A model generated the notes under the pieces. It saw only the letters and a program-made list of their open reading frames with translations. It did no database searches and was not told where the DNA came from. A program made the translations under genes and the position numbers. A stretch of DNA of 64,000 nt, from IMG/VR virus record IMGVR_UViG_3300008954_000007. One strand, 5' to 3'. Shown piece by piece: positions 3,701 through 50,982 of the stretch. This DNA is from a virus. Positions within the stretch are counted from its first letter, which is position 1. Every line of letters starts with the position of its first letter.

Positions 3701-3729
3701 TTGACGTATAGGTTGCTAACGTATATAAT
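3701..3729 (+). promoter_or_regulatory. Sigma70-type promoter of the head operon
   Basis: TTGACG (3701-3706), 17-bp spacer, TATAAT (3724-3729), with an A-tract UP-like element upstream. Confidence 0.85.
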
Positions 3730-3761
3730 TGAAAAGGAATAATCTAGAATTGAGGTTAGAA

Positions 3762-5225: not shown

Positions 5226-5251
5226 CATAGTCTTAAGAGAGGTATATAATA

Positions 5252-6514
5252 ATGAGTAATTTAGAAGGTGTCTTCACCAAAGGCCCAGATGAAGAAGCTA
5301 TTGGTTCTGTTAGTGCTGATAATCAACCTAATATAGTTGATAGTGTTGAGCATTTTGTTCCAGAACCACTGCTTAACACTTTTCATGGTTTAATGAGGGA
5401 AAAAACATTTGTACGTTCTATGTTTAGAACAGTCAATATGCCCTATACGACCATGAATATTCCAACTATTGCTTCAGGAACCAGGGTTTATCACCAACCT
5501 AATGAAGCAGCACAGGGTGAAGCAACTGGCGTAACGTCAGATAGCTATCAAATCACTGCTAGAAAACTTATGGCTCAAACCATGATTTCTAGAGAAGTGA
5601 TGGAAGATGCAAATCAAAATATTCAGCGTGTAGTGACTGAAGATTTTGCTAGTGCATTAGCTGCTGCAGAAGAGCAAGCCTTTTTGTTGGGTCAAGAAGT
5701 TGGTACTTCAGCAATAGATCCTGATACTTCAGGTGCTAGTGTTAATAGTGGAACTGTAGCTGCTGATATTAGAAGAGCCACCAACATTTGGAAAGAGACA
5801 GGGTTGATTGACTTCAATGGTGCTACAGATCAACAAATGACAAATAACCCTAATGTTATTTGTGATGGTTTGTTGACAGTTGCATTGAGAAGAGGTGGTA
5901 AGAATGTTATTGATGCTGCAGGTGACTCTTTTTATGGTTCTACTGCCTATGAATTAGTTAGAGATGCCATTTCAAAAATGGGTATTTTGGGTAGAAACAA
6001 AAGAGAATTAGTTTTAATTGTTAATTCAGTTGCTGCTAGTCAATTATTGATGAGTAGTGAGTTGATGACTCTAGAAAAGTATGGTAGAGATGCCACTATT
6101 TTGACAGGTGAAGTTGGTCAACTATTTGGATTGAAAATTATTGAATCACAATGGTTACCAGGTGGTGCAGCAGCTACTACACTTGGTGGAGGCCCATCAG
6201 GTTCTCCAGTAGCAGCAGAAGGTGCTACTTATGAAGTCACTAAAGATGGTACTGGTGCATTAGGTACTCCTAGAGAGTATGGTCTTGGTGGTTATGCCAT
6301 CTTGGTTCATATTCCAAGTGTAACTATTGGTGATCGTAGAAAAGTCTCTATCAGAACAGAAGAAGAGATTGCTGTAGATGCTTTTAGAACAGTTCTAACA
6401 TCTAGAGTTGGATTCTATTGTCAGCAACAGTATGAGTATGGTGGAACAGCCCCACTTTGTCCAGTAGTTGCCATTGGTAACATGGATTCATCAATTGGAC
6501 TAGAATCTCCTTAG
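5252..6514 (+). CDS. Major capsid protein (HK97 fold)
   Basis: FVPEPL..., ITARKLMAQTMISREVMEDA, AAAEEQAFLLG, GQLFGLKIIESQWLP; follows the protease; GAGAGGT RBS. Confidence 0.92.
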   Translation: MSNLEGVFTKGPDEEAIGSVSADNQPNIVDSVEHFVPEPLLNTFHGLMREKTFVRSMFRTVNMPYTTMNIPTIASGTRVYHQPNEAAQGEATGVTSDSYQITARKLMAQTMISREVMEDANQNIQRVVTEDFASALAAAEEQAFLLGQEVGTSAIDPDTSGASVNSGTVAADIRRATNIWKETGLIDFNGATDQQMTNNPNVICDGLLTVALRRGGKNVIDAAGDSFYGSTAYELVRDAISKMGILGRNKRELVLIVNSVAASQLLMSSELMTLEKYGRDATILTGEVGQLFGLKIIESQWLPGGAAATTLGGGPSGSPVAAEGATYEVTKDGTGALGTPREYGLGGYAILVHIPSVTIGDRRKVSIRTEEEIAVDAFRTVLTSRVGFYCQQQYEYGGTAPLCPVVAIGNMDSSIGLESP

Positions 6515-29800: not shown

Positions 29801-32800
29801 TGCTTCATCATCAAGTACAAGTACCCCTGAAGAATATGCAAATTTTTTAGCTCTAGGAACACCTAATTATATGACAGTTAGGGTGGTTGAAGTTCCAGCA
29901 GGAATGATAAGAGCAACTGGAGAGTATGGTGATCCTGTAACAGATTTTGCTACTGGTAATGGAAGTTCTAGTGACTATGAGTTTGTATCTGGAAATGAAC
30001 AATGGTGGTATTTGTCTAGTTATGGATTCTTACCAGATGCTTTAAAAGAGTCAAATACTGGTGGTTTTTCTGTAGGTGATGTCATTACTATCCATACTAC
30101 AGATAGTAATTTTAATTTCTCAAGTACTGAGTATATTACACTTTTAGAATATTTTAGAGAAGCTTTTCAAGCACACTTTGGTGATCAAACTTCTAATGAT
30201 TTTATTTTAAATTTTAATTCTTCAGGTTTAATTTGGGAAGGAAGAGGGTTTACATTATCTGACGTTAGGAGTGGTCTTGAAGATGGTGATCAGTGGGTAG
30301 ATCAAGATTTAAAAACCACAGACGATGTGGAGTTCAAATCAATTGTTATTGATACTCAGACCTCTGTTAATACATTAACTATTAGTGATGGTAATATTAC
30401 TTTAGAAACTTATCATGATCCTATAGGGATTGGTAATGATTATCATAATTTTATAGATTTAAATGTTGATGGTGATGGTTATATTAAGTCTAATGGACTT
30501 CAAATATATGAAACAAGAACTCACCAACAACAACAAAATTCTTCTGCTACTATCACAAAAGAAGGTGCTTTAACAGCCTTATCAATTTCATCAGATAGTA
30601 TCACAACAGATGAATTAGCAGCAAGAGAGATTCAGAGTGATGGGAACTTATCTATTGGTAAAGATTTTAAAGTAGGATCTAACGTCAATATAACTTCTTA
30701 TTATGAGGAAGATCCCATAACAGATTCTTACACTAATTTAGTGAATTTTGAATCTTCTTCTGGACTAAACCTAAGAGATTTTTATTATGTAAATACTGAT
30801 GCTCAGGGTGATTTAACGATTAGGAGACAAGATAGGGAATTACTTGAAGCTCCTTTTATTGATGAAAGTCTTACAGGAGATCAGTTACTAGAAGAAGAGA
30901 AGAAGCATGAGAATCTTTTAGCAGAAGCAGGTCATACTGTTTTAGATACTAAGTCTTTAATTGTTAATACATCATTAATAAAATTATCTAGTAGAAATAT
31001 AACCATAGATGGTGAAGCACCATTTGGAAATATTGCTAATGATAATCATGATATTGGTTTTTATGCCAACTATAGAGATGCCTCTAGTGAAGTAGATAAA
31101 ATAACAGGTTTATTTAGGCAACATTCTGATGGATTAAACGAAGGAGAAGCAGGAAGAAGAAAGGGTGAATATTATCTTTTTGATGTTCCCAGGTTTGTTA
31201 GAGGATATAGGAAAACTAGGAAATATACTGAGAGATATAAGGCATATCAAACACTAGTAGAGTATATAAGTATATCTAGTAATTATCATGCAGATAGTAA
31301 CCCTAAAGGTCAGTCTGAAGGATACTATGTAAACCATTTTCACAGTATGTTTAAGCATCAACATATTGAAGGTGATGGTCAATATGAGCCTAATCCATAT
31401 TGGTATCCAGAGATATTGTTTGATTACACAACTAGAGCTTTATATACACCTTCCACTGATCCATCATCAGAAGGATTTGATGATACTTCTGGTATTTCTT
31501 GGTTTGTTGGTGAATGGACTCAATCTGGAAATTCAACTCAGTATCATGTAGATTTACCAACAATTAAAGATTATAACGATGGGATGGTATATGCAGGTAC
31601 AGCCTCTCCTTATGGATCTCATCAAGCTGAAAATACTTCTCTGAAGGATTATTTCGATGGACTTTTAAGTTGGAAAGATGCTTATGATCATAATAGTACA
31701 TTATCACCTATAGAAGTTGGGGGGGTTGTAGACTCTAGCCACCCTGATTGGATGGTTCCAGGATCAGAGGGGATAAACGCTATATATGAATATGATGAAT
31801 CACATTCTCTTTCTGAGAAAGATTCTGATAAAGCTTGGTTTGGATATGTTTTAGAGGATATGCCTGGTGAATTAGAGTATGAAGCATACAATGATCCTTA
31901 TGATCCAGCACCTTTAAGTGGGTATGATCTAACAGATATAGGTAATCCTGATAATACTCAAAGTGGAACACAGACTGCATCAGAAACACCAGCACCTAAT
32001 TCTTATTCAGAGTTTGATAATTTTAATGAGATTTTAGGCAAGGAGATATATACAGCGTTTGTTGGGGATTATGGTGTTGGTAGTCATATTTACAAGTGGT
32101 ATAGAAAGTCTGGAGAGGACATGGCTCCACCACAAGAATATGAATATATTGACACACCAGAAGGGAGACAATATTCCTATGAAGTAAACAGTACTGTAAG
32201 TATAGAAATGGCTTATTTAGATAGGCTTGAGGATGTAGAGGATGTAACAGGATATTGGGATACTCCTTATAGACGTGTTGATGGAAAAGACATAATAAAG
32301 TTTACCACAGAGTTTGGTAATTTTTTAAATACACCTAAAGTACAGTATAGGTATTCTCCAACTGAAGATTATCCTTTTGAAATAATAACTGGTAGTCCAC
32401 ATTTTTATATCTATCAAGAGCCAGACTATACTGATCATGATTTAGTGGGTAAGTACAGATATTTATGGTTAGTTAAAGGAGAGGGAGATCAAGCTGATAG
32501 AGTTACTACGTTAACGCCAGAAGAATTCTCAGAAATATATGGTGGAAATGTAAATAGTATTGTTCCTTTACTTAGGGAATTTACAGATGATAAATACAAC
32601 CCAAGAGATTTTCAATTAGCAAAATTAAATGCTGTTCTTTCAGAGGATTCTAAGTGGAAAGGACAAAAAATTGAATTTGAATACATAGATGAAGAGTTAA
32701 CTTCTAAAATTCAAGAGGCAGATACTCACAGAGGAAGATTAGACAATCCTCACAATGTAACATCTAATCAAATTCAAGATTTTGATGATAATGTTTCTGA

Positions 32801-35121: not shown

Positions 35122-38100
35122 ATGGCTAAAGACATTGTAATACAACCTTTATTAGGAAAAATTGATTTTCAAGATGACGTTGGTGGTAGTTATGCTACTA
35201 ATAGCAATTTTTTAATTGCTGATGATGGAACCACTACTCTAAGTCTGAATAAAAATAATGGTGGGGCAATTCCAACTATTGATTCTGTGGCTAATGTTGC
35301 CTTAGATATTGATGGTTCTCTTGCTATTACAGATAAATTCATTCAAAATGGAGTTCATCGACCTTATGACAGTGCTTTCTTTGGTGTTTTAAGAGAAGAA
35401 GGAAGTAATGGTGATAAAAGAGCATACTATGAAGGTGGTATGTTGGGCGTTGGTGACTTTTCTTCAAGTGCACCCATTGCAGCTTTAGATGTAATTGGGT
35501 CGATTCATGCTTCTGGTGACATTACAAGTGTTAATGTTAATTTCACTGGAGAGCTACAAGACAATGGTACTAAAGTTGAGTTAGAAAAACTAGACTTTTT
35601 TGATAAACCCTCAGATACAGTTACTACAACCCACAACCTACAAGCTGCTGACATCACAGCTACAGGTGCAGTAATTGTTCAAGGTAATTTGACTGTTGAA
35701 GGCACTACTACCACAATAGAGTCTTCCACCCTAGCCATTGATGATAAAAACATCGTACTTGGTAGATCTGATGATTCAACTAATGATGCATCAGCACAAG
35801 GTGGTGGTCTTACATTAAGTAATGACGCAAATGGCGATAAGACTATTGCATGGTCTGCTACAGGTTCAAATCACATTTCAGCTTGGGAATTTAGTGAAAC
35901 AGTTGTAGTAGCTGGTGATGTAGATTTTACAGGTGCATTAAAGAAAAATGGTGTAGCCATTGATTTTGCTTCAGAATCAGGAGTTATTTGGTCTGAAATT
36001 CCTGGTGAAGCTATTGACTTAACTAGTGCTACACAAACTGCTTATGGGTCAAGTGGTCAGTTAGAGTTAAATTCTACTCAAATAAAAAGTGGAACATCTG
36101 CAACTGATAATATTTCAGATCTTGCCAATATTACAATTAGTGGTGATTTTGAGATTACTCTTACTCCAAATGTAGCAGAGACTATGGGTAGTTCTGCTGC
36201 AGTTAATTTTCTATTTGTGTCTGAATCACTTGGTGTTCCAACCAGTGGTGGTGGTGGTGTATATCCCAATTTTGGTACATTAGTACATATTGGACATTAT
36301 CCAAGTGAAAACAGATCTAGGATCTATAACTTAGCTACTGAAAATTGGCCTGTTAACTCCTTAAGTTATCGTATTATTTATACATCAAGTAGTAGGGTTT
36401 TGGTTGTTTTAGATGATGGTGGAAATTTAATAATACAGACCACAATGCCTGGAACAGGTGGAATTTTATTTGGTGTTCAGGGTTATAATGTAGATCAACA
36501 CACCAATGGCTTAGTAGCTACTTATTCAGGGTTTATTGGTGCTGCATCAATTGATACAGCTACATACACAGGTGATGTTTCAACCACTGGTAACATTAAA
36601 CTAGGTGGAGATTTATTAAATTCAGCAACTGGTGGAAATTATGTTGATGAAAGAATCAATGTAAAAAATGATGGTTCTGACGCTTATTTAGCTGGAAAAC
36701 TATCTATAGGTAGTTCTGCTAATGCTACCAATAATGATAATTATGACTTAAGTGTTCTTGGTTCGTTGAATTATGGAACTCTCCACGCAGATGGAAATCA
36801 AATTGATTATGGTACTGATTTTGGTCAGTGGAGTCTTAGTGGGTCTAGCTTAACTACTGCATCTGGTAATAATTTAGGTCTTGGTGGTGCTGCCAATGCA
36901 TCTTATAAATTAAAAGTAACTGGAGATTCTCATGTTACTGGCAGTTTATATTATGGTGCTTCAGCAACTCTCATAGAAGATTTTATAGTTACTAGTAAAA
37001 CATCAGCTATTAACTATTTAATTAAAGATGGTAGTGATAATTTAAGTTATAGTGATGGTGATTTAACTATAGATAGCACCATTAGTGCAGATACAGTTAC
37101 AGCATCCAATATAGATTTCACTAGTAGTTTACAAAAAAATGGTTCTGCTTTAACCCTAAAATCAGGTGACTTTGGCGTTTGGGAATCTGCTGGAGCTAGT
37201 GTTTCTTTACCAGTTCCTGCTACTCAAGGAATAGATATTTCTTCTTTCATTACATCTGCTGGTAACACTAAAGTTTTTGGAGTAACCAATAGTGGTTTTT
37301 ATTTTCTTGCTAACGATAATCTGTATTTATATAACTTCTCTACAGGAAGTGTCAGTACTATTCAACAAAACTTAGAGAATACTATTGATGGTGATGGTGC
37401 GACTACTACTTATGGTGTAAATACTCATGAATCCATAATAAAAACTGTTTCTTCAGGTGATGAATATTTTGCATGGTCAAATCGTCAGACTAGTAAATTT
37501 TATGTTTACAACATAACAAATGGTTTTACTCAACTTAATGACAGCACTGTTAATTTTTCATCATTGGGTTTAACTAACGATGTACATATTAAGCAATTGA
37601 TTCCAGATCCTTCTGGAACTGAATGGAATGATTTTGCTCTACACAGTTATAGTGAAGATGCTATTAAACACGCTAATAAAAAGTGGACAATAAACTATAG
37701 CACTGATCTTATAGACGATCTTATAGGTCTTGATTCTACTGGTAGGTTGTTTTACTCTACTAGCAGTGGTTCTTTAGCTTATGTAGATGTCAGCAGCTTA
37801 AGTAATGATCAAGTTGTTAATTTAGATGACTTAAGTCCAGTTACAGTTACTACTCTATTTAGTTCCTATACAGATAGTAATGGCAGGTTCCAAATCACAT
37901 CTCAGATAATAGAGTCTTCTGGTAGTCCACAAACTATTTTAACTGACACTTCTGATAATTTTTGTCATCTCTATGATTTGTTGACAGGGGATGTGGTTAC
38001 TGATCTTATAGATGGTATTTTTGATGTGGGTAATGGACTTGAACCTATAGGTGGAAGTAATTATTCGTTTGTAGCTTATAACCCTTCAAATGATGAAACA

Positions 38101-41100
38101 GCTTGGATGGGCAATAGTAAACATGTCTATACAACAGGGGCAATTATTGGTGGACAGGTTATTCATAGTCAAGCTTCTGTTGCTATTGGAAAAACAGCAC
38201 CAGATTATGCTCTAGATGTTGTTGGAGATATTAACATAGAGGGTGGAAAGCTTTATCAAGATGGTGCAGAAGTTGTTACTGGTACATTGGCTACTATTAA
38301 CTTCTTGCAAATGATAGGTGATGAAGCTGCCAGTACAGAATTTTTATATACAGATGCACCTTTCCAAATTGGTCAAAGAGATGCTTCATCTTCTCATGCC
38401 ACTTCAGCTACTTTTACATCAGGTGTTCTTCTTGAAGTTGATGGTCACATTGAAGCAGCTAATAATATTTTAGCAGCAGGAGCAATTTTTACTAATTCCA
38501 TCACTACTGGTGGATTAGATACTGGATCTGGAAATATTGTTACTACAGGTCAAGTTGCGATAGGTGATGGTGCGACTACAGGAACATATGGTCTAGAAAT
38601 TCAAGATGGATTGAACGTTAAAGGTGGATTCTACAACAATGGTGGAAGTGCCTTAAAAGTTGAAGCACTAGATTTTTGGGTAAATAGTGGTGACAATAGT
38701 GAAAAACTATCAACTAGATCAGCTACTGATAACATTACTAAAGTAGGTATTGGTGTAGCAGATCCAACTAGTGCTTTAGAAGTATCTGGAGACATCAATA
38801 TCGTAAGTGGTAGTCTTCTAATTGATGGCACAGCATTAGTAGTAGATCCTTATTTCAATGTTAACGAAGATGGTCATCTAACCCTGCTTGCCAAAGATAA
38901 TGGTGAAGATCCAAATACAGGTAGATCATTAAGTGTTGGTTCTACAGATACTAATAGTGTTCCAAGTGCAACATTAGATGTTACAGGAGATATATTGGCT
39001 TCTGGAGACATTACATTTAATGGAAACTTAAAAAATGGCAATAATACTCTGACAATTGCAGCCCTGGATTATTGGACTGAAGGTTCAGGAAATCTAACTA
39101 GAGGATCTGGTGATGTAATTATCTCTAGTGGAGATTTAAGTGTTAGTGGAAATGTTGATATTGGAGCAGGGGGTCAATTCTTAAGAGATGGAACGCCTAT
39201 TGACTTCAACGCAGAGGGTGGATCTTTATGGACTTTAGGAACTAATAATGACCTTACTTCTGGAGCTAGTAAAGTAGGTATAGGAACAGGTTCTACCACA
39301 CCACTATCAGAACAACTAGAGGTTGATGGAAACATTAAGTTCACAGGTGACCTCAAGCAAGTTGTTGATGGTGTTACCACCACAGTAGATTTACTTAATG
39401 TTTGGTCTTCAAGTGGTGAGACATTTACATATAATCTATTAACTGGAGATAATTCTACTGTTTTTGAAGCATATTCATCTGCAACTGATCCAAGTTATTC
39501 TGCGAATGTAATCACTCACAGTGGCACACTTCAGATTCAAAGTATTCTTCCAGTAACAGAGATGAGCCTAGATTATAGAGTTACTCAATCTATTCAAGGA
39601 ACCCATCTAGGTTATAAATGGCGTGTTAATGTTATTGAGAATGGTGTGGTAGATGCTCAAAATTCTTTTTATTTAAATATTTCATCGCACACAGTTAGTC
39701 CTGAAATATTTACACGATTAGACTTTGTCTCAACAGTAAATGGTGTAGGTGGTTATTCAGAACATCCTGGCTCTTCTCCATACCTAAATGACTCTGCAGT
39801 TTTTAATTATGATGGTGCAGGTAATTTCACATTTGGTAAGTCATCTTCCCAAGTAACAAAATCTATACCAGAATGGGCAGGAAAAACACTGCAGATTATA
39901 TTCGATGGTTCATCAAATCTTTCATCAGGTGGTGTTAATTGTGGTGCAAAACAACTTACTTTTGATAGTGGAACGTTAGTTGTTACAACAGGAGCTTTAA
40001 CAGCTACTTTTGAAGGTTCTGTCTCAGCAGAAGGTGGACTAACTATAGGTGGAGACATCTCAGGTGCTGGCATAACAGGAACTGGTTTAACTCTAGGTGC
40101 TGGAAACATTACTACTACTGGAACTATTGGATCAGGAGCAATCACCAGTTCAGGTTTATTATCAGGTGTTGGAGCAGAATTGGGTGGTGGTAACATCACT
40201 AATGCTGGAACTATTAGTTCAGGACAAATCACTAGCACAGGATCACTATCAGGAACTAGTTTATCATTAGCTGATGGTGGTATTACTAATACTGGTGCAA
40301 TTATTGGAGCTACTACCATAGTGGCATCTAGTTCAATTGAAGGTGGTAGTTTAGACATATCTGGTGTAGCAGAAGTTGGATCATTAACTACTACAGGTTC
40401 AATTGCAGGTGGTGCTCTTTCTGGTACTGGATTAACCCTAACTAATGGAAACATTTCAGATGTCACAAATATCACAGCAGGTGGGTTTGTAAAAGCAACT
40501 GGTGCTCTAGAAGGGGCTACTTTAGCACTAACTAATGCAAGTATTGTTTCTGATGGAAGTATTACAGCTACTAGTCTAGATCTAAATGATGGTGGAATAG
40601 TTGATGCTGGAGCCATAAGTGGTTCAAGCCTTGCTTTAGGATCTGGATCTATTGGTAGTGGTGCAATAACTAGTACTGGAACAGTTCAAGGAACCAGTTT
40701 AGTAGCATCTGCTGGTGGAGTACAGGCTACTGGAAATATTATTTCATCTGCTGGTAACGTAGAAGGTGTAGATGTCACAGCTAGTGGAACTCTTGGTGGG
40801 TCTATTCTTAATGTAGATACCATTAATCTATCAGGTGCATTTAGTCAAAATAATCAAGTAATTGACTTCACTCATGTGTGGAATACAGAGATTGTAGATG
40901 CTGCTGGAGCAAGTGGTGGTGTTCAGTCTGAAAGTTTTGATTTGGATGAGCACTTTATTGACATAGAAGAGCCAAACCACATGGGTGTCATTAAATATGG
41001 TGAAAGTACAACCACCTATGTCCAAAGAGTGAATGCAGGTACACAGAATACTCATGATAATTTTACAGTTAAGTCTGGAATTTTCATGTCAGAGTTAGAT

Positions 41101-44100
41101 ACTACAGTCACAATTCTACAAGTTGGACAGATGAATACCAATCCAGTAATTACGTTTACTGGATCTATTTACATATACGATTCTTTAACTGATGAAGTCA
41201 TAGGTAGGGTTGAATCAGGTAGATACTCGTCGTCAACTAGTGGTGGACATTATCAATGGTGGGCAAATGTTTGGACTTATGATGGTGGTGTTGAGACTGA
41301 GCATGTACATGCAGATACTGGAAGTAGTTTTGCAGAAGGTATTGGCTTTGTAGTTGTAAGTGAAACTGGTGCTATAACACTTGGTAATTACACCCACATA
41401 TCACCAGATTTAATTGGAAAATCATTTTGTATTAGGCTTTCCATTCATGATAAAGCATGGAGATATACCTTTGGTGGTTCTAGAACCTATAAGGGTGCAA
41501 CTGTAACACAAATAAGGGCTGATAAATCAGTAGTAATTGATGGTTCTTTAACTGTTGGTGATACTGCTAGTCAAACTTATGGTTTTGGTACAGATGGAAC
41601 TCTAAACATCTCCACACTGAAAGTTGACAACACTTCAGTTGATCTTTCTTCTATTACAGGTGATTCAACTGCTAGTCAAGAGAACATCAACTATTGGGAA
41701 ATAGATGGTGGAGCCATTTCTTACTACGATGGTGATGTATCCATTGGTGGAACAGATCCAGCAGATAGTACTCTCAAGTCCAGAAGCTTAACAGTCACCA
41801 ATGACTTAGGTGTAACTAATAAAGCTACAGTTGGATCTTTGAATGTTCCAGTAGGTGGAACTCCAACAGATATCACTTTTGGTGAATCAGATCTTTCAAA
41901 AGCCAACATCAACTATTGGACAGATGATTCATCTACATTATCAACTCCTAGAAACATAGATGTAAGTGGTAATGCAACTGTTGATGGAAATTTAGTACTA
42001 GAAGGTGCTGGAAATATAGATTTCAACCATGCAGACAACTCTTATGAAATAAGAGTTACTCCTCATGCCACTGCACCTGTATTTGAAATTTGGAGTGATA
42101 TAGATAGTGGTTATTTACTGAGAAGTGGAAATGGTCAAGATGTAGTTATTAATAGAAATCTTGATGCAACAGATATAGCTGCTAGTGGCGCACTAAGTGG
42201 AGCCACACTAAGCGTTAATGGAACAGCCATTACTTTTGATGTTCCTAATGATGAAGTTAATCAAGCCAACTTAAATTATCTAACTCTATCAGGTTCAGAT
42301 CTCACTTATACTGGTGGAAGTCTTGGTATTGGAACATCCTCACCAGATTCAGCACTAGAAGTTGTTGGTGACATTGAATTATCAGGTAGTTTCAAAAGAA
42401 GTGGTGCAGTACTAGAACTTGAAAATCATTGGGGAACAAGCCCTCAAGGTTCAGGTCTTCCAATTGATAGTAACGTGTTCTTGCCAGGTGGTGATCTTGG
42501 TCAAACTGAAGGTAATGGTAATTTCTTAGTAAATGGTCTTGGAAATGATGCAAGTACTTTGTTATGGCTAAGAACTGGCACTAACCAATATGTGCTTTAT
42601 ACAGTCAACAATCAAGGTCAAGCTAGTACTAATGGTGGTGTACTAACCTTTCAAAACACACCCAATCTTATAGATGCTACTGAATATATAAGGCATGATG
42701 GGGGTACTAATGCGTATACAAGATCTGATTTCTATCCAGGTGGGCTTGGAAACTTTGTTTTCATGTTGGATAACACAAACAGAACGATTCAAACCCACTT
42801 CATAGGTTGGTTGCCAAGAATAGATACGCAACCACATTTAGAATCACAATTATCAATTGGCCCAACTAATAGTGGTTTGCGTCAATGGAGAGCATTCCTA
42901 GATGGTGCACATGCTAGTAATGATTCTTCAAGGTCACTAACTACTAGTCAATCTAATTCTGATTGGAATAGAATAGAAGCTGCATCAGCATATCATAGAG
43001 TTTATCTTTCTAATAATAACACAGCAGGTGAGGGGTCTGATTCTGGAGTTTACTCCTGGAAAATAAACCCAAAACAACATGGTGATTTGTCTTCTGCTGC
43101 TAGTATGTATAGTCAAAATGCAGTACTTTTCCCTTGGCAAAATGTTACAGAAAGCTATGCAGACGCAGATTCAACATTTGACTATGATACAGATGGTAGT
43201 GTAGTACAAGTAGTTCAATTAAATAATATTGTAAACACCTTATATGATGGTATGGATGAAGGAGATAAAGCCTCTGTTAAGATATTAGATATGGCTTTTG
43301 ATGACACAAATGACATTGCTGTATTCTTAACAAACAAGGGTTTGTTCAAAGCAGATATAAATCCTTCAACTGGCTTGTTATCAAATGAACAGAGCTTCCT
43401 ATTATTCTCTGCAATAACAGGGGTTAATACTAATAGTGGTGTAGTTGGAGATCCATTTGCTGATACAAGAATTAGTATAGATCCATCAAAAAGAGAAGTT
43501 TATTGGGCAGATAGAAATGCAAAAGCTATTTTTAGGGCTGGATATTCTTCTGAAGATAACAATTCTTATGACATAGTTCATCAATGGACTAATTCTGATT
43601 CTTGGAATGATACACATCTTATTTCTGGAGACTTAATAGTTCTTGATACTGATACTGACTATAAAACTAGTTACATCACTGGAATGACAAGCATAGTTGG
43701 TGGAGCACCACACGTATATTATGCAGATACAGTCTCTATTGGTAAAACTTCTAAACCAGATTCAACATTAGACGTTGATGGTTCAGCTACTATTAAGAAT
43801 AGTATTACATCTACTCTAGGCAATATTACTGCTACAGCAGGTGGATTAGTTGGTCAAAGCCTTACAGTAGGTGGTGATAGTGTAACTTTTGAAAACTCAA
43901 CTGTTAATAAAGTTAACTATAACTATTTGGTAGATGCTTCAACAAAATACACCCTTAATAATCCACTAGAGATAACAGGTGCATTAACAGGTGTAACTGA
44001 TCTAACAATTGGTGGGGCAATTTCTGGTGCAACCAACGTAACAGCTTCTGGTACATTGTCAGTTGGTGGTGCTGCATTAGGATCTAATGCATTAGCAGTT

Positions 44101-47100
44101 ACTGGAGATGTTCACATTTCTGGTGATATTTCAGCTACCAATGCTACTTTTACAGATATTAACATTGCTGGAATTAGCACAACCATCGAAACTTCAGACT
44201 TAGATGTTACTGATAATGTTATCAGAGTAGCTTCTGGTGTGACAGATACTCTTGTTAATAACACAGGTATATTGTTTGGTGGTAACGCTAGTGATGCTGT
44301 TGGTTCTGGTGAGTTAGAGTCTTTACTTTATCTCACATCTACTTCTGGTTTTAATCTTTCTACAGATTTAGTAGTTTCTGGAGCTTTATCAGCTAATAGT
44401 TTGGATCTTAATGATGGTGGAATCACCAGCGCAGGTGCGATTGCAGATGCCACATCCATTACAGCTACTGGTGCTATCTCTGGAGCAAAAGGTACTTTCA
44501 CTGCTGTTGACGCAACTTCAGGTCTAATTGAAACATTAGGTAACATTGAAGGTGCAGATATTACAGCGTCTGGTGCTTTATCTGCTGCAAGCTTAAGTGT
44601 TACAGGTCTAGATTTCAGCAAGATGGATCTTTGGACATTAGATGGTGGTGGTAATTTAACCAGAGCAACAGGAAACGTAGAAATTGGTGGTGGGAACTTA
44701 ATTGTTGATGGAAACATAACTGCAGCAACAGCTTCTACTATAAGTGCAGGTAGTGCCACATTAACTATCAATAATATCACCTTGGGTGAAAATATCACTA
44801 AAGATGGCACACCAATTGATCTCTACAACGTTTGGGATACAGTTAGTGCACCAGCAGAAGTTCCCTTAGATCTTACAGCCCTTTCTGATAATATATATAA
44901 TAGTGCAATCACTGTTACTAGTACTACTATAGTATCCAACGCATCTGCCAATGATGGTAATTGGTATGTAAGTGGTGTGTTCAATGAAGATTTCACTATT
45001 ACTTTTACTGCTACTGGTGATACTGTACCAGCTACAGGTTGGGGGCCAAGGATAGCATTTGCTAATGGTGGACTCAGTTCTTTTGTAGACCACAATGGTT
45101 ATCTAGACCTCTCTACAGATTTTAATGCTGGATTTCTCTTTAATCATCAAACTGGTTCTAATCCAAATGATACTACTATACCAATTTATTTCTTTAGCAG
45201 TTCTGCTGTAGCAGAACTTGAAGATTCAGATACAATAACCCTTAGTTTTGTTGCATCAACTAATGTAGTTAGTCTTCTTGACAATGAAAACAATGTAGTT
45301 TTTTCAGGTACTTTAGCTAATGGAGATGGTTCTTTTAAATTTGCTGTTCAGATGACTGAAGAGGATCATTTTATAAATTATTCAGGAACAACAGTTAATC
45401 CAAATGCAGGTTCAATAGCCACATTTACAAATAAAGTTGCTCTAGGTGCTTCATCCTACTCAGCTAGTTATACTGGTGCTATTGATGATTCCAGTGGTAG
45501 CTACTCAGCAATTCTAAATGTCACAGCAGATGAAGATTCAGGTGATTATTTCAGAGTTAGTGATGATGGTGATGTTTACTTCTCTGGAGATCTAATTAAA
45601 GATGGTACTGTATTAGATCTAACAGCAGTCTCTGGTGATGTAGCACTCAACCAAGCTCAAATTAACTACTGGACACTTGGTGGTAGCTCTTCATTAACTT
45701 ACAATGCAGGAGCCATTAACACCAATCAAGCTCTAACAGCAGGTAGTATTTCAACTGGTGGAACTTTAGGTGTAACAGGAAAAGCTACTGTAGGTTCCTT
45801 GAATGTTGGTGGATCAGACATTACCTTTACTGAGACAGTTATTGATAAACCCACTTTAAACTATTGGTCTGATGATGAAACTACACTATCTACTACTAGA
45901 AGTGCTAGTGTTACAGGATCTTTAAGTTCTGCTTCATTAACTGTCACTAATGCCATAGGTGCAGCCAGTATGACATTATCTGGAGCAGCTAATGTTCAAT
46001 CATTAACTGCTACAGGGAACATTACAGGTCAAACTATAGACTCTAATGGTGCAATCACTGGTACTGGTCTAACAGTAGGCAGTGGTGGAGTAACCATTAA
46101 TAGTGGTGGAGACTTAAGTGTAGCTGGAGATATTACTTCAGTAACAGGCATTACAGCTACTGGAAATATTGGTGCTGTTGGTATTACTGCTTCTGCAGAC
46201 ATTGGTGCTGATAACATAGTAGCTACAGGTGATGTTACAGGTGCAAACTTAATAACTGGTGGCAATCTTACAGCCACTGGAAACATAAGTGGTGCTAATT
46301 TAACTATAGCTAATGTAAACGTCATAGGTGAATTAAGTAAAAATGGAGTAGTTCAAAACCTAAGTCACACTTGGGGGATAGATCCTGCATATCCAATTGC
46401 AGATATAACAACTTTAAGTGATACAACTTATGATAGTAGTTATTGGTCAGTAACATCAACAACAACTGGTACAAGTTTAAGTTATCTTCAAGCTAATAAC
46501 CCTAATGGTAACGCAGGGGCAGCATATTTAAATAATGTTTATACATATATGCCTGGTGGTAGTGATTTTGACATCACTATATCAAGACCATTAAACACTA
46601 ATGGTGACCCTGTTACTCTTTCTATGGGTTTTGGAGTACCATTAGATATTACTAGTAATGATTTCTTCCATTATAGTAGTGGAATGGTTGATGGGTCTAA
46701 GTATGGAGTAGGTGCTCTTACTTGGGCTGGCTCTAATGGTCATTTTTCTTGGAGATCTTGGGGCAATACTAATACTTTTAGTGACATATCCTTTTATATG
46801 GATGATGCTTCTAATTCTGTACTCAGAATTAAGTATGATCTCTCAGACAATAAAGTACAGTTTATAGATGCCACTACTGGTACAGTAATTCAAGAATATA
46901 ATAGTCCACCAGGTATGGGTAATTCTACCAATGGTTGGGCATTGAGTTTATGGGTTAATGCTAGTGGAGATAACCCAATTACTCTTGATCTTGGTGGGCT
47001 AATGGCTGATGCAGAAAGTGATGGGTTAAATACAGCCACTTATACAGGAAATGCTGTTTTAACCAATGATCTTACTGCTAACAACATTTCAGGTGTTGAT

Positions 47101-50100
47101 ATCACAGGAACTGGAGCACTAGCAATTGGATCTACTGGTCAATTATCAGTAGACGCTACTGGAGCCATAGTATCTGTTGGTGCAATCACAAGTTCAGGCT
47201 TAATTAGCACAACTAATGGTATTACAGCTACAGGAGACATTGCAGGTGCTAATGTCAACATAGCTACAGGTGGTGAACTAACTGTAGGTGGAAGTGCCAT
47301 CAGCTTAGAACCCAACGTTTGGGATAAAGTAAGTGATATTGCAGTTTATTCAGACAATGTTGCATTAGGTGCTACATCATATGATTCAGGATATACCCAA
47401 ACAGAAGCTCTATCAGTCACAGGTAACACCAAAATTGATGGTAACTTAGAGTTCACTGGTAGTCTAGTAGATGGCTCAGGAGCAACTGTTGATACTACTT
47501 CAACATTTGTTGAGGTTATTGAAGAAGGAAGTGTTTTCTTACCAGTTGGCAAAAAGCTTGGTGTTGGAAAAGCCTATACAGAAGGTGCTGAAGCTACTGC
47601 AGGTTTTGATACTAGTAATATCTTAGAAATTACTGGTGAAGCTGCAATTAGTGGAGATTTCAAAGTTGGTAGTTTAGTTGATGATAGTGAAACCATTAAG
47701 CTTAGTGCTGATGGTGCTATTACAGCTACTTCATTTACAAGTTCTGGTGCAATCACAACTACTGGAGACATAAGTGGTGCAAACATCACAGCTTCAGGAA
47801 ATGTAACTGGAGTAGTTGACTTAACAGCTTCAGGAGATATCACAGCTTCTTCTGGAACACTAGGTATTAACAACATCACCCTTGGTGGAGACATCACCAA
47901 AGATGGTACAGCCATTGATCTCTTCAACACCTGGGATAAAATAATTGTACCTGCATTTGAAGATTACCCCAATACAGGTGGTGATGATGGTTTCTTTACT
48001 GATGATAACTACCCAGATTCATCATTTACTGTTTCAATTATAAGTACTGATCCCAATCAGTGGAGCATATATAGAGGCAGTGGCCCAGCTAATGTAGGTG
48101 CTTGGCATACTTCATCCTTAGATTCTGGTATTGAATTTGAATTCAGGATGAATAATGAGTGTAGATATGCTTTGGTGTTAGATGGTGATGATGTAGCTGA
48201 TGCTAGTATTTTTCGTCATGAAGATCATATATTTGGTTTTAGAGTAGAAGGGGATGAATGGTCTGATCATGAGGTTAATATTCATTCTTATGGAACTCTT
48301 GTACTTAATGCTCACAAACCTGCAATTGGAAATGATGAGTATGAAAGGCTCAAATATAAACTCACTTATGATTATGTAACAGGTGATGCCTCTCTTCATG
48401 AAAGTATTGATAATGGAGCTTATTCCTTATTGCATACGCAAGCAATAGGTTCAGGTTTAAATCTGAAAGTTGCTGGTACTTCAACAAAATCCTATGCATA
48501 TACATATATTGACAAACTGCAAAAGATAATTGTAGGTGGTGGAACTACAATAGCTCATATAGATGAAGGAAAGATAGCTATTGGTGCATCTACTTATGAT
48601 GCTGCAAGTTACACTCAGACTGAAACACTAGCAGTTACAGGTGCAATTACATCTACAGGATCAATTACAGGTGGTTCATTAGTCTCTGGTGGAGATGTCA
48701 CCATTGCAGCAGGTAGTAACCTGATAGTTGGCTCTTCAGCTATTGACTTTAGTCTACTAGATAACTCCATAGATCAGATCAACCATTGGGTAAAAACAGG
48801 AACAGATTACATTCTAGGTTCTGTTTCCAGTACTGTAAATGCAGGTATTAACCTTGATTCACTTGGTGATGTACATGCTTTAGAAATCAATGGTTCACTG
48901 AAAGCTTCTGGAGACATCGTAACAGATGCTGATTTAGAAGTTGTACACATCTCAGCTACTGGAGATATGGGAATTGGTGGAGATGTTGTATCTTCTACTG
49001 GAAACATTGCAGCAACTGCTGGAAATGTTACAGCAGGTGGATATATTACAGCTACTGGAGATGTTACAGGTGCTAACCTAACAACTACTGGAGACTTAAC
49101 AGTTGACAATGTTGTTCTAGGTGGAAACATCACCAAAGATGGTACAGCTATTGATCTCTACAACGTTTGGGATAAGTTAGTTGTTCCAGAAACTGAAGAT
49201 ATATCTGCTTCCAATGTAATTGTTTATAAGGATGGTAGTGAAGTTAGTGGTCTAACTCATAACTTTACACCTACTGTTGGTAATACAATTGGTATTGGAA
49301 CAAGTGTTTCAAATGGTAAACCAGTTTTTGATAATCAATCCTTTAGTCTTACAATTGATGCTAATATTAGTGCTGATGATTGGTATAACATTAATATCAC
49401 GACTGAAAGTACTGTAGGCAACCAAAGTCAGGGATTATGGATTGGTGGTTGGGGTGATAGTGCTGGAAACAAAATTACTATATCATGGAACCACTTAGAT
49501 AGTAGCACTGGAGATATCACTACTGCACACAATGGAAGTGATGGTGTAATTACTCTATCTTGGAATAATGATACAGGTGTAATGACCTTTGATTTTGTTC
49601 ATGATAGTGATTCAAGTAAAGACGTTAATTTTGTTTTTGATGACAATCCAGTTCAAAGTGGTGCAGTTTTAGGTGTTTCTTTTGCTGGTGGAACACATGT
49701 TGGTATGTCTACTACTATAGACTCTATTACTTATGGTGGGTCTTTTACAAACCCCAATAGTGGAGAAATAGCAACACATGCTGATAAAATTGCTCTAGGT
49801 GATAAAACACCAGGCGCATACGATGCAGGATATACTCAAGATGAAGCACTAAAAGTTACTGGAGATGCTAACATCTCAGGTATCACTACTCTAGGCAATA
49901 ACTTAAGACTAGAAGGCAATGATCTAGTAATAGATGGTGATATTGTTAACACATCTGGTGTTAAACTAGTAGACAGTGATAATGCAGCAACAGGTGGTGT
50001 TAATCCAGCAGATATTAACTACTTATCATCTGATGGTACTAACTTAAGCTACGCTGGTGGAAACTTAGGAATAGGTTATGCATCTCCAGGAGTTGTTCCT

Positions 50101-50982
50101 TCATCTTTTAGTATTAACACTAATCAACATGTTCAAGCACAGGGTGGCTTTTATAGTTCAGGATTCTTCAAGCTTGATGCTTATAGTTTAGGGAATAATA
50201 CTTTAGATGACATCAGTCATTACACTGAGGTATACACGCCATTAACACACAGCAATGGTGCTCAGTTCCTACATAATGTGGGTATAAAGACTACACCAAG
50301 CACTCAATATGATCTAAACATTGCAGGTGATTTGAACTGGAATGGTAAGTTATATCAAGGTGGAGAAGAGTATAAAGCTCTTCAAGCTGGTGATCAATTA
50401 GAACTGCAAGCAGAAGGTGTAGGTACTGGTGTTAACTACACAGTTCTTAATCTACAGAAGAACAAATTCCAGTTTGTGGATGACACAACTTCAGGTTTGT
50501 CTTATGCTAATGGGTCAGTAGATGCTGCAACTGTAGCTGCAATTACCATCACAGATCAAGCAATAGGTCTTGAAACAGATGGTCAAGTAATTGCATCAGA
50601 TGTTATTGCTGGTAACCAGCAGTCAACTTCAGACGAAAGACTGAAGCAAGACATCACTCAGATCACTAACGCAGTTGATAAAACCCTACAATTAACAGGA
50701 ATCACATTCCAGTGGAATGTTGAAAAGATCAACGAAGAAGGATTGAGAGTACCTGGTGTTGTTGAAGATCGAACAGAAGTGGGTCTGGTTGCACAACAAG
50801 TTGAACAAGTACTACCAGAAGTAGTAACTGAAGTTCAATTTGGATATAGCAATGTTAATGAAGACACAGTCTATAAAACTATCAATTACGATAAGGTTGT
50901 GGCTCTATTGGTTGAAGCTATTAAAGAACAGCAAGAACAGATTAATGACTTAAAGCAAGCTGTTGAAGATTTAAAAAAATAG
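35122..50982 (+). CDS. Giant trimeric tail fibre/spike (5286 aa) with a C-terminal peptidase S74 intramolecular chaperone and multiple inserted globular domains
   Basis: TSDERLKQDI...GITFQWN...VGLVAQQVEQVLPEVV...INYDKVVALLVEAIKEQ at 50626-50982; G/T/S-rich beta-repeat shafts; W...GxVGIG repeats; GAGGT RBS. Confidence 0.88.
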   Translation: MAKDIVIQPLLGKIDFQDDVGGSYATNSNFLIADDGTTTLSLNKNNGGAIPTIDSVANVALDIDGSLAITDKFIQNGVHRPYDSAFFGVLREEGSNGDKRAYYEGGMLGVGDFSSSAPIAALDVIGSIHASGDITSVNVNFTGELQDNGTKVELEKLDFFDKPSDTVTTTHNLQAADITATGAVIVQGNLTVEGTTTTIESSTLAIDDKNIVLGRSDDSTNDASAQGGGLTLSNDANGDKTIAWSATGSNHISAWEFSETVVVAGDVDFTGALKKNGVAIDFASESGVIWSEIPGEAIDLTSATQTAYGSSGQLELNSTQIKSGTSATDNISDLANITISGDFEITLTPNVAETMGSSAAVNFLFVSESLGVPTSGGGGVYPNFGTLVHIGHYPSENRSRIYNLATENWPVNSLSYRIIYTSSSRVLVVLDDGGNLIIQTTMPGTGGILFGVQGYNVDQHTNGLVATYSGFIGAASIDTATYTGDVSTTGNIKLGGDLLNSATGGNYVDERINVKNDGSDAYLAGKLSIGSSANATNNDNYDLSVLGSLNYGTLHADGNQIDYGTDFGQWSLSGSSLTTASGNNLGLGGAANASYKLKVTGDSHVTGSLYYGASATLIEDFIVTSKTSAINYLIKDGSDNLSYSDGDLTIDSTISADTVTASNIDFTSSLQKNGSALTLKSGDFGVWESAGASVSLPVPATQGIDISSFITSAGNTKVFGVTNSGFYFLANDNLYLYNFSTGSVSTIQQNLENTIDGDGATTTYGVNTHESIIKTVSSGDEYFAWSNRQTSKFYVYNITNGFTQLNDSTVNFSSLGLTNDVHIKQLIPDPSGTEWNDFALHSYSEDAIKHANKKWTINYSTDLIDDLIGLDSTGRLFYSTSSGSLAYVDVSSLSNDQVVNLDDLSPVTVTTLFSSYTDSNGRFQITSQIIESSGSPQTILTDTSDNFCHLYDLLTGDVVTDLIDGIFDVGNGLEPIGGSNYSFVAYNPSNDETAWMGNSKHVYTTGAIIGGQVIHSQASVAIGKTAPDYALDVVGDINIEGGKLYQDGAEVVTGTLATINFLQMIGDEAASTEFLYTDAPFQIGQRDASSSHATSATFTSGVLLEVDGHIEAANNILAAGAIFTNSITTGGLDTGSGNIVTTGQVAIGDGATTGTYGLEIQDGLNVKGGFYNNGGSALKVEALDFWVNSGDNSEKLSTRSATDNITKVGIGVADPTSALEVSGDINIVSGSLLIDGTALVVDPYFNVNEDGHLTLLAKDNGEDPNTGRSLSVGSTDTNSVPSATLDVTGDILASGDITFNGNLKNGNNTLTIAALDYWTEGSGNLTRGSGDVIISSGDLSVSGNVDIGAGGQFLRDGTPIDFNAEGGSLWTLGTNNDLTSGASKVGIGTGSTTPLSEQLEVDGNIKFTGDLKQVVDGVTTTVDLLNVWSSSGETFTYNLLTGDNSTVFEAYSSATDPSYSANVITHSGTLQIQSILPVTEMSLDYRVTQSIQGTHLGYKWRVNVIENGVVDAQNSFYLNISSHTVSPEIFTRLDFVSTVNGVGGYSEHPGSSPYLNDSAVFNYDGAGNFTFGKSSSQVTKSIPEWAGKTLQIIFDGSSNLSSGGVNCGAKQLTFDSGTLVVTTGALTATFEGSVSAEGGLTIGGDISGAGITGTGLTLGAGNITTTGTIGSGAITSSGLLSGVGAELGGGNITNAGTISSGQITSTGSLSGTSLSLADGGITNTGAIIGATTIVASSSIEGGSLDISGVAEVGSLTTTGSIAGGALSGTGLTLTNGNISDVTNITAGGFVKATGALEGATLALTNASIVSDGSITATSLDLNDGGIVDAGAISGSSLALGSGSIGSGAITSTGTVQGTSLVASAGGVQATGNIISSAGNVEGVDVTASGTLGGSILNVDTINLSGAFSQNNQVIDFTHVWNTEIVDAAGASGGVQSESFDLDEHFIDIEEPNHMGVIKYGESTTTYVQRVNAGTQNTHDNFTVKSGIFMSELDTTVTILQVGQMNTNPVITFTGSIYIYDSLTDEVIGRVESGRYSSSTSGGHYQWWANVWTYDGGVETEHVHADTGSSFAEGIGFVVVSETGAITLGNYTHISPDLIGKSFCIRLSIHDKAWRYTFGGSRTYKGATVTQIRADKSVVIDGSLTVGDTASQTYGFGTDGTLNISTLKVDNTSVDLSSITGDSTASQENINYWEIDGGAISYYDGDVSIGGTDPADSTLKSRSLTVTNDLGVTNKATVGSLNVPVGGTPTDITFGESDLSKANINYWTDDSSTLSTPRNIDVSGNATVDGNLVLEGAGNIDFNHADNSYEIRVTPHATAPVFEIWSDIDSGYLLRSGNGQDVVINRNLDATDIAASGALSGATLSVNGTAITFDVPNDEVNQANLNYLTLSGSDLTYTGGSLGIGTSSPDSALEVVGDIELSGSFKRSGAVLELENHWGTSPQGSGLPIDSNVFLPGGDLGQTEGNGNFLVNGLGNDASTLLWLRTGTNQYVLYTVNNQGQASTNGGVLTFQNTPNLIDATEYIRHDGGTNAYTRSDFYPGGLGNFVFMLDNTNRTIQTHFIGWLPRIDTQPHLESQLSIGPTNSGLRQWRAFLDGAHASNDSSRSLTTSQSNSDWNRIEAASAYHRVYLSNNNTAGEGSDSGVYSWKINPKQHGDLSSAASMYSQNAVLFPWQNVTESYADADSTFDYDTDGSVVQVVQLNNIVNTLYDGMDEGDKASVKILDMAFDDTNDIAVFLTNKGLFKADINPSTGLLSNEQSFLLFSAITGVNTNSGVVGDPFADTRISIDPSKREVYWADRNAKAIFRAGYSSEDNNSYDIVHQWTNSDSWNDTHLISGDLIVLDTDTDYKTSYITGMTSIVGGAPHVYYADTVSIGKTSKPDSTLDVDGSATIKNSITSTLGNITATAGGLVGQSLTVGGDSVTFENSTVNKVNYNYLVDASTKYTLNNPLEITGALTGVTDLTIGGAISGATNVTASGTLSVGGAALGSNALAVTGDVHISGDISATNATFTDINIAGISTTIETSDLDVTDNVIRVASGVTDTLVNNTGILFGGNASDAVGSGELESLLYLTSTSGFNLSTDLVVSGALSANSLDLNDGGITSAGAIADATSITATGAISGAKGTFTAVDATSGLIETLGNIEGADITASGALSAASLSVTGLDFSKMDLWTLDGGGNLTRATGNVEIGGGNLIVDGNITAATASTISAGSATLTINNITLGENITKDGTPIDLYNVWDTVSAPAEVPLDLTALSDNIYNSAITVTSTTIVSNASANDGNWYVSGVFNEDFTITFTATGDTVPATGWGPRIAFANGGLSSFVDHNGYLDLSTDFNAGFLFNHQTGSNPNDTTIPIYFFSSSAVAELEDSDTITLSFVASTNVVSLLDNENNVVFSGTLANGDGSFKFAVQMTEEDHFINYSGTTVNPNAGSIATFTNKVALGASSYSASYTGAIDDSSGSYSAILNVTADEDSGDYFRVSDDGDVYFSGDLIKDGTVLDLTAVSGDVALNQAQINYWTLGGSSSLTYNAGAINTNQALTAGSISTGGTLGVTGKATVGSLNVGGSDITFTETVIDKPTLNYWSDDETTLSTTRSASVTGSLSSASLTVTNAIGAASMTLSGAANVQSLTATGNITGQTIDSNGAITGTGLTVGSGGVTINSGGDLSVAGDITSVTGITATGNIGAVGITASADIGADNIVATGDVTGANLITGGNLTATGNISGANLTIANVNVIGELSKNGVVQNLSHTWGIDPAYPIADITTLSDTTYDSSYWSVTSTTTGTSLSYLQANNPNGNAGAAYLNNVYTYMPGGSDFDITISRPLNTNGDPVTLSMGFGVPLDITSNDFFHYSSGMVDGSKYGVGALTWAGSNGHFSWRSWGNTNTFSDISFYMDDASNSVLRIKYDLSDNKVQFIDATTGTVIQEYNSPPGMGNSTNGWALSLWVNASGDNPITLDLGGLMADAESDGLNTATYTGNAVLTNDLTANNISGVDITGTGALAIGSTGQLSVDATGAIVSVGAITSSGLISTTNGITATGDIAGANVNIATGGELTVGGSAISLEPNVWDKVSDIAVYSDNVALGATSYDSGYTQTEALSVTGNTKIDGNLEFTGSLVDGSGATVDTTSTFVEVIEEGSVFLPVGKKLGVGKAYTEGAEATAGFDTSNILEITGEAAISGDFKVGSLVDDSETIKLSADGAITATSFTSSGAITTTGDISGANITASGNVTGVVDLTASGDITASSGTLGINNITLGGDITKDGTAIDLFNTWDKIIVPAFEDYPNTGGDDGFFTDDNYPDSSFTVSIISTDPNQWSIYRGSGPANVGAWHTSSLDSGIEFEFRMNNECRYALVLDGDDVADASIFRHEDHIFGFRVEGDEWSDHEVNIHSYGTLVLNAHKPAIGNDEYERLKYKLTYDYVTGDASLHESIDNGAYSLLHTQAIGSGLNLKVAGTSTKSYAYTYIDKLQKIIVGGGTTIAHIDEGKIAIGASTYDAASYTQTETLAVTGAITSTGSITGGSLVSGGDVTIAAGSNLIVGSSAIDFSLLDNSIDQINHWVKTGTDYILGSVSSTVNAGINLDSLGDVHALEINGSLKASGDIVTDADLEVVHISATGDMGIGGDVVSSTGNIAATAGNVTAGGYITATGDVTGANLTTTGDLTVDNVVLGGNITKDGTAIDLYNVWDKLVVPETEDISASNVIVYKDGSEVSGLTHNFTPTVGNTIGIGTSVSNGKPVFDNQSFSLTIDANISADDWYNINITTESTVGNQSQGLWIGGWGDSAGNKITISWNHLDSSTGDITTAHNGSDGVITLSWNNDTGVMTFDFVHDSDSSKDVNFVFDDNPVQSGAVLGVSFAGGTHVGMSTTIDSITYGGSFTNPNSGEIATHADKIALGDKTPGAYDAGYTQDEALKVTGDANISGITTLGNNLRLEGNDLVIDGDIVNTSGVKLVDSDNAATGGVNPADINYLSSDGTNLSYAGGNLGIGYASPGVVPSSFSINTNQHVQAQGGFYSSGFFKLDAYSLGNNTLDDISHYTEVYTPLTHSNGAQFLHNVGIKTTPSTQYDLNIAGDLNWNGKLYQGGEEYKALQAGDQLELQAEGVGTGVNYTVLNLQKNKFQFVDDTTSGLSYANGSVDAATVAAITITDQAIGLETDGQVIASDVIAGNQQSTSDERLKQDITQITNAVDKTLQLTGITFQWNVEKINEEGLRVPGVVEDRTEVGLVAQQVEQVLPEVVTEVQFGYSNVNEDTVYKTINYDKVVALLVEAIKEQQEQINDLKQAVEDLKK
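44770..49175 (+). repeat. Dispersed 55-70-bp direct repeat (ITKDGTxIDLxNxWD) at 44770-44839, 47869-47940 and 49120-49175; partial copy at 47314-47327
   Basis: atcaccaaagatggtacagc.attgatctct.caac...tgggataa read directly from the sequence. Confidence 0.85.

Follow-up and report, generated by a model that had tools for sequence, protein, structure and literature searches.

A 5286-residue fibre protein of an IMG/VR virus with nine large insertions at a repeated tryptophan-ended module

The virus genome recorded as IMGVR_UViG_3300008954_000007 (133,564 bp, estimated to be 93% complete) was analysed over a window of 64,000 nt (record bases 50274-114273), which encodes a 5286-aa fibre protein, P0001, carrying nine large insertions in its chain (Table 1). 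The fibre gene is a single open reading frame (ORF) that starts 2 nt past the stop of an upstream 5742-aa ORF. At least six contigs from JGI, ENA and Logan assemblies, up to 144,611 bp long, encode a 99.98%-identical protein, and the entire 10-kb stretch that was searched (41000-50979) occurs in two marine runs; the gene is therefore not an assembly artefact. A C-terminal peptidase S74 domain is a mark of trimeric fibres and spikes, usually with distal receptor-binding domains. The fibre ends in such a domain, which matches PF13884 at 55.9 bits against a cut-off of 22 (63 bits in a six-frame search) and is the only match in a Pfam scan of the protein, so that the initial annotation of this DNA was right in describing one fibre chain with an S74 end. 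The SDxxxK motif, which contains the catalytic Ser and Lys of these domains (PMC10769870), occurs once in the whole protein, as SDERLK at the start of the S74 domain. Among PDB sequences the only relatives of this domain are the chaperone domains of T5 pb1 (6f45) and MyRF.

Table 1. Features of the fibre gene, in window coordinates
Feature	Position	Strand	Description
Fibre gene P0001	35122-50982	+	single ORF, 5286 aa
N-terminal region	35122-35991	+	aa 1-290
Insert 1	35992-36552	+	aa 291-477, 187 aa; distant paralogue of insert 6
Insert 2	37183-38154	+	aa 688-1011, 324 aa; exit into VAIGKTAPDYALDV
Insert 3	39406-39996	+	aa 1429-1625, 197 aa
Repeat shaft, aromatic-free, G/S/T/A-rich	39997-40881	+	aa 1626-1920
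Insert 4	40882-41505	+	aa 1921-2128, 208 aa
Insert 5	42433-43710	+	aa 2438-2863, 426 aa; exit into VSIGKTSKPDSTLDV
Insert 6	44836-45411	+	aa 3239-3430, 192 aa; between WDTVS and SIATFTNKVALG
Insert 7	46375-47028	+	aa 3752-3969, 218 aa; weak paralogue of insert 6
Empty module	47257-47370	+	pre-Trp module, W4067 (47320-47322), 13-aa hairpin, VALG
Insert 8	47935-48549	+	aa 4272-4476, 205 aa
Insert 9	49171-49764	+	aa 4684-4881, 198 aa
Distal shaft and aromatic-rich tip	49765-50628	+	aa 4882-5169; exposed after predicted S74 cleavage
Peptidase S74 intramolecular chaperone domain	50629-50979	+	PF13884; begins SDERLK, aa 5170

The repeated element of the fibre is a short module ending in Trp. The 25-aa stretches that precede the Trp align as G(D/N)h.h.G.h.K(D/N)G..hDh...W, and a hidden Markov model of this module recognizes 20 W-ended sites in the fibre, nine filled and 11 empty. 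No comparable score was found in reversed decoys, in the 2246-, 5742- and 4911-aa proteins encoded beside the fibre, or in the large proteins of the relative described below; since the model was trained on those same 20 sites, only this specificity is informative. Every insert has its first residue directly after a Trp (9/9), and all nine coordinate pairs proposed in the initial annotation are accurate. In six empty copies the Trp is separated by 13-22 aa from a V(G/A/S)(I/L)G motif, which leads into a ..P...L.V.G strand, while in filled copies 2, 5, 6, 8 and 9 the same distance is 201-434 aa. Inserts 1, 3, 4 and 7 share the Trp entry and exit through other motifs (ATYTG, ATFEG, KSVVIDG). The earlier proposal that all inserts occupy the same loop is thus, as the copies align, strictly true for five and approximately true for four. 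The cleanest pair sets the empty copy at W4067 (WDKVS-DIAVYSDNVALG), already singled out as empty in the initial annotation, against WDTVS[insert 6, 192 aa]SIATFTNKVALG, and a second filled counterpart is WDKLV[insert 9, 198 aa]EIATHADKIALG. Read as alignments, such pairs are insertions at the tip of a hairpin. DNA repeats of 23-134 nt are found at insert boundaries and are just 63-91% identical, which makes them weak candidates for recombination handles. A second TTIETS-type motif near aa 3000 was not significant (z 2.6).

Seven of the inserts measure 187-218 aa and two are larger, at 324 and 426 aa; together they make up 41% of the protein. Phe, Trp and Tyr account for 10.6% of their residues versus 5.2% elsewhere, and Pro, His, Arg and Met are enriched two- to fivefold. 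The four Cys residues of the fibre (948, 1607, 2103 and 4347) all lie within inserts (2, 3, 4 and 8), as had been noticed before. A blind scan of aromatic content recovered eight of the nine insert blocks together with the distal tip. GC content at third codon positions does not differ (0.177 in the inserts, 0.167 in the rest of the gene), so the inserts appear to be resident sequence, none of which looks recently imported. Neither BLASTP nor phmmer matched any insert to another insert or to the other giant proteins of the phage. In Smith-Waterman comparisons against shuffled sequences, inserts 1 and 6 reached a z of 7.6 and inserts 6 and 7 a z of 4.8, with all remaining pairs at or below 3.3. 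By these scores inserts 1, 6 and 7 are a diverged paralogous family and the others are unrelated at the sequence level. The initial view of nine different domains therefore holds for most of the inserts, the distant paralogues 1/6 and 6/7 being the exceptions. A profile built from inserts 1, 6 and 7 recovered neither inserts 3, 4, 8 and 9 nor domains of the other giant proteins above reversed decoys.

The arrangement of one insert relative to the shaft was modelled with ESMFold2, using three copies of aa 4620-4940, which comprise insert 9 and flanks of 64 and 59 aa. The interface score ipSAE was 0.71, versus 0.00 for the best control, with at least 97% of contacts shared between runs and a partner pLDDT (predicted local distance difference test) of at least 76. 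In calibration, which was made with two copies rather than three, 21 of 30 solved homo-pairs but 0 of 23 single chains attained the mark applied to ipSAE. The confident interface consists of segment residues 1-67 and 258-319 plus residues 69 and 79, and insert 9 occupies segment residues 65-262. At most 10 of the 198 insert residues contact another chain, all at the two ends of the insert except residue 79, while ~90% of flank residues take part in confident chain contacts. Because the chain interface is almost exclusively made by the flanks, these are modelled as building a trimeric shaft, with insert 9 standing outside it, a placement that agrees with the expectation of the initial annotation.

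Related fibres differ at the inserts. The nearest assembled relative, IMGVR_UViG_3300030419_006839 (104.9 kb), is syntenic and has a capsid protein 46% identical to that of the source virus; its 1811-, 2223- and 1995-aa proteins correspond to the 5742-aa protein, the 5286-aa fibre and the tape-measure protein. The S74 fibre of this relative (2223 aa, 24481-31152) keeps the N-terminal ~20 residues and the S74 domain and has none of the nine inserts. It is built of 23 VGIG(T)TSP units at a spacing of 31-116 aa (typically ~80), except for two wider gaps of 168 and 252 aa. In several units a Trp lies ~12-30 aa ahead of the next VGIG, so that the Trp socket looks like a regular element of a fibre repeat shared by both phages. 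The first ~20 aa held in common (MAKD..I.P..GKI) make the N-terminus the probable virion-attachment end of the fibre. With the fibre as query, no related locus was found in viral contigs or metagenome contigs, nor was one found in viral contigs with the capsid protein alone; with capsid proteins aligned, viral contigs yielded a single useful relative and genome contigs yielded none. The 2223-aa fibre contains 44 Cys residues, many of them in its 252-aa enlarged unit (aa ~950-1200), compared with four in the fibre described here.

A closer relative is represented in the public marine run X4 by contigs 92-98% identical over pieces of the shaft. One match extends to 39407, 2 nt past the W1428 codon, and gives way to 193 unlike letters at the start of insert 3; elsewhere 304 unlike letters are followed by a match from 41536, 31 nt after insert 4. 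Positions 43680-44788 match at ~96%, with the edge of the match 31 nt before the end of insert 5. Beyond 43680, inside insert 5, the contig has 231 unlike letters for 243, then 162 nt that align at ~75% and a further 190 unlike letters, so read as aligned the 3' part of this insert is replaced or strongly diverged. Run X5 shows a break at the same position, 43680, near the end of insert 5. A further X4 contig breaks exactly after the W4271 codon (47934), before insert 8, and resumes at 49761, where an insert ends; by contrast, the match runs through the start of insert 7 at 97% identity. Four X4 breaks thus fall at insert boundaries beside well-conserved shaft, a pattern that favours either replacement of the inserts or far faster divergence there than in the scaffold. 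The X4 contigs are short and were placed at 80% likeness in a repeat-rich gene, and each break alone is weak; parts of the gene left uncovered in runs X3-X5 and X10 were not counted as evidence. The expectation in the initial annotation that inserts would vary among relatives is in keeping with both the insert-free syntenic fibre and these boundary breaks. The X4 relative also skips two stretches, the 126 nt of an empty Trp module (window 39102-39229) and 645 nt within the G/S/T repeat shaft (40118-40764), from which it follows that shaft length and module number, as aligned, vary between strains. Two apparent contig joints, 40567->44456 (side 28) and 49809->48655, are probably repeat effects and were set aside.

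By sequence the inserts match no family in the collections searched. None was matched in Pfam at E up to 10, in PHROGs at E up to 1 or among PDB sequences at E up to 1. In tblastn of the fibre against 50,697 phage genomes only the S74 domain and a shaft motif at aa 127-280 (marine cyanophages) were matched. When aa 3700-4899, which cover inserts 7-9, were searched exhaustively with phmmer against 1.84 billion representatives, no insert was matched, and only a fragment from the same phage and two weak matches to the G/T-rich repeat shaft were returned. A word-based search found no relative of insert 5 among shorter proteins, and among proteins of near-equal length the one homologue was the fibre itself. 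No carbohydrate-binding module (CBM) or lectin family was found by sequence in the inserts, and neither the PF13385 nor the PF20350 (DUF6645) profile matched anything in the genome at E up to 10. The concanavalin A (ConA)-like fold initially suggested for the short inserts thus found no counterpart in the family searches; fold searches with a low-confidence model returned weak, sub-threshold ConA-like rows, together with PL7 alginate lyase and GH43-associated modules, and the fold is a weak lead that is not established. For inserts 2 and 5, neither a Pfam repeat nor an internal repeat was detected (self-alignment z 0.4 and 0.3); propeller blades are often without detectable sequence repeats. 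The propeller-type lead in the ESM Atlas reached only 0.78, in a YncE/lactonase cluster, with scores for insert 5 of at most 0.83, and the beta-propeller fold proposed for these two inserts is unsupported. Assignment of insert 7 to DUF6645 (ESM Atlas 0.96) or PelX_N (0.94) was likewise rejected, as recognition fell below the mark and the DUF6645 profile lacks a match in the genome.

The reading that best accommodates these observations, with a probability of roughly 60%, is a homotrimeric fibre, cleaved by its S74 domain, with a conventional distal tip and 27 lateral per-chain domains that bind host surface polymers. Three 5286-aa chains would form a very long virion fibre, the S74 domain acting as a chaperone of trimerization before cleaving itself off at Ser5170 and exposing the tip. 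By default a Trp-ended module would lead through a 13-22-aa hairpin into the V(G/A)IG strand of the shaft. At nine copies the chain would instead leave the shaft after the Trp, form a separate, mainly-beta domain of 187-426 aa and re-enter the shaft, so that the trimer would display its 27 lateral domains in addition to the tip. Their most likely role would be binding to host surface polymers, which would give adsorption in dilute sea water more avidity and reach, with inserts being exchanged or diverging much faster than the shaft. For a phage that rarely meets its hosts, a long fibre with many weak binders may provide a larger capture radius as well as avidity. With a rise of 0.5-0.7 Å per residue, the value for long T4 fibres and for the Bd3182 model (PMC10769870), the ~3,000 non-insert residues would span on the order of 150-200 nm. 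It is the insert folds, their binding function, the length of the fibre and its attachment site on the virion that we infer in this scheme. A number of points weigh against it. No binding motif was found. AlphaFold2 (AF2) gave an unusable pLDDT of 35.8 for aa 3700-4899 without an alignment, and for insert 6 with its flanks, using an alignment of five paralogues, an all-beta model of low confidence (pLDDT 40.1, predicted template modelling score 0.41). Insert 9 is the one insert of nine modelled as a trimer, and its pass may in part be model memory of solved PDB fibre shafts. Some of the X4 breaks may be assembly artefacts or derive from other phages. The fibre gene also lies between head/neck genes and tail-tube genes; distal fibre genes are usually located after the tape-measure gene.

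Other explanations assign the inserts a different role or a different place in the fibre. They could be enzymes rather than lectins (polysaccharide depolymerases, lyases or esterases), making the fibre a multi-enzyme drill through capsule or exopolysaccharide. Glucanases, alginate lyases and sialidases are among the proteins that adopt the two folds proposed for the inserts, the ConA-like jelly roll and the propeller; the weak fold rows include the PL7 and GH43-associated entries mentioned above, and depolymerase activity is frequent in S74-bearing fibres and spikes such as the K1F endosialidase; we nevertheless regard an enzymatic role as unlikely. Still less probable is that all three chains combine to make each aromatic-rich block an axial knob, as in T4 gp34 and gp37, instead of a lateral domain of a single chain. 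The knobs of T4 fibres are trimeric, intertwined domains, and the trimer model extends to insert 9 only; within that model, however, the insert is nearly free of confident contacts with other chains and its flanks are not, and the empty and filled pairs have the clean in-or-out character of insertion at a hairpin, which fits an autonomous domain.

The protein as a whole might also be a dispensable neck, collar or side fibre, serving as a loose tether to particles, mucus or cell envelopes rather than as the receptor binder that determines infection; lactococcal neck-passage fibres and Hoc-like decoration are the obvious comparisons. Its gene is placed between connector and tail-tube genes, as are siphophage neck-passage genes, and the presence of four giant fibre-like genes in tandem suggests accessory appendages. 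Neck-passage-structure (NPS) fibres are trimeric, CBM-bearing and non-essential (PMC6669499). Gene position is a weak guide here, however, since a primase/helicase block interrupts the head-tail order, and the S74 end and distal tip resemble tail fibres of the T5 pb1 type. On balance a dispensable appendage of this kind seems improbable, about as much so as the enzymatic role.

Within the preferred reading of a trimer with lateral binding domains, a further and more speculative step is that the Trp-hairpin serves as a reusable socket, with orphan binding domains swapped by recombination between near-identical shaft segments to give a combinatorial, multi-receptor fibre. This is a tentative proposal that we hold doubtful. 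If true, socket swapping would diversify host capture in dilute oceans at the level of whole domains, unlike tip swapping or diversity-generating retroelements.

Several components of the proposed architecture are known from other systems. S74 fibres and spikes such as T5 pb1 (PDB 6f45/4UW8) and the K1F endosialidase have the same PF13884 end with SDxxxK, preceded by a beta-rich trimeric shaft. T5 pb1, however, has ~1,400 aa and a single distal binding region, while the fibre here has 5286 aa and nine large per-chain insertions. Host-binding CBMs have been described as insertions in Dit, Tal, neck and tail proteins of phages (PMC9437275, PMC6669499). In the CBM-decorated siphophage proteins (evolved Dit, Tal, NPS and TpeX) autonomous modules likewise sit in a loop of an oligomeric protein and point outward, and in phages of Gram-positive hosts they vary between related phages, host binding being thought general and shown in two cases (PMC9437275, PMC6669499). 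In the present fibre, too, the scaffold continues on both sides of the module, as seen in the empty and filled hairpins and in a modelled interface formed by both flanks and not by insert 9. The CBM-decorated proteins carry one to a few modules of recognizable families, in contrast to nine at a homologous repeated site, none of them recognizable by sequence. The receptor-binding protein Gp45 of phage phi11 is also a homotrimer, whose chains each supply a globular domain of their own between trimeric segments (PMC4901313); it is a far smaller baseplate protein with a single propeller, unlike a fibre with nine inserts for which a propeller fold is unsupported. The MAT fibres of Bdellovibrio are likewise phage-like and trimeric, some of them S74-ended, and mosaic, with diverse adhesive domains (PMC10769870). 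They are cellular, secreted proteins of ~1,000 aa with diversity at the tip, whereas the fibre is phage-encoded, with multiple lateral diversity. MATs are recognized as cell-encoded proteins with a signal peptide ahead of a conserved, beta-rich N-terminal domain of ~130 aa (PMC10769870). The phage-encoded fibre has an N-terminus, MAKDIVIQPLLGKIDF, without a hydrophobic signal-like stretch, and so falls outside this definition (the MAT N-terminal domain itself was not compared).

Loop-inserted, outward-projecting autonomous modules in oligomeric phage adhesion proteins, and mosaic S74 fibres with adhesive tips, are thus well described. What is new is the scale and regularity, with nine insertions at homologous sockets of one 5286-aa chain and empty sockets beside filled ones; also new are the total lack of recognizable insert families and the signs of socket-wise replacement in a close relative. 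If the model holds, the fibre shows how far loop insertion can go, to nine autonomous domains per chain and 27 per trimer. The empty and filled sockets offer defined sites at which domain display on fibres can be tested, and new glycan-binding folds of the ocean virome may be represented among the inserts.

The motif at aa 127-280 (window 35500-35960) is a common fibre-shaft motif, 34-52% identical to sequences of marine phages, including Synechococcus phage S-CBS2 (annotated 'head decoration protein'), S-CAM7 and marine virus AG-345-D19. The fibre is the third of four tandem giant ORFs (2246, 5742, 5286 and 4911 aa) that extend over window 11142-64000 and beyond (record 61415-116435) and total 54.6 kb, or 41% of the record. 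With this share of the genome in four giant genes, host capture must be both very costly and very important for the phage. Only the last two giant proteins (5286 and 4911 aa) have an S74 C-terminus, and no Pfam match was found in the 2246- and 5742-aa proteins or in the N-terminal half of the 5286-aa protein. Upstream of the giant ORFs lie genes for an HK97-type major capsid protein and a head-tail adaptor, with primase and DnaB helicase genes on the opposite strand; downstream are the genes for four phrog_290 tail proteins and for a tape-measure protein of 2524 aa. These point to a very long non-contractile tail in this uncultured, siphophage-like marine phage. The four phrog_290 genes, annotated 'minor tail protein', are paralogous and precede the tape-measure gene (record 123735-131309), whose product is of a size that implies an unusually long tail.

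In one ENA assembly (a 32,148-bp contig) the fibre gene is split into 522- and 4738-aa products that correspond to aa 1-515 and 549-5286; the split, at window 36667-36766 (aa 516-548), reflects a frameshift or stop variant, or else an error of sequencing. The seawater metatranscriptome run X10 contains five perfect contigs, 160-243 nt long, that map to the fibre gene between window positions 36625 and 48773, a hint of expression only, as DNA can occur in such libraries. Immediately upstream of the fibre gene (window 34790-35120), the last ~110 aa of the 5742-aa protein share 57% identity with the C-terminal end of the assembled relative's 1811-aa protein; the two proteins are otherwise unrelated and have in common a conserved, non-S74 C-terminal end domain.

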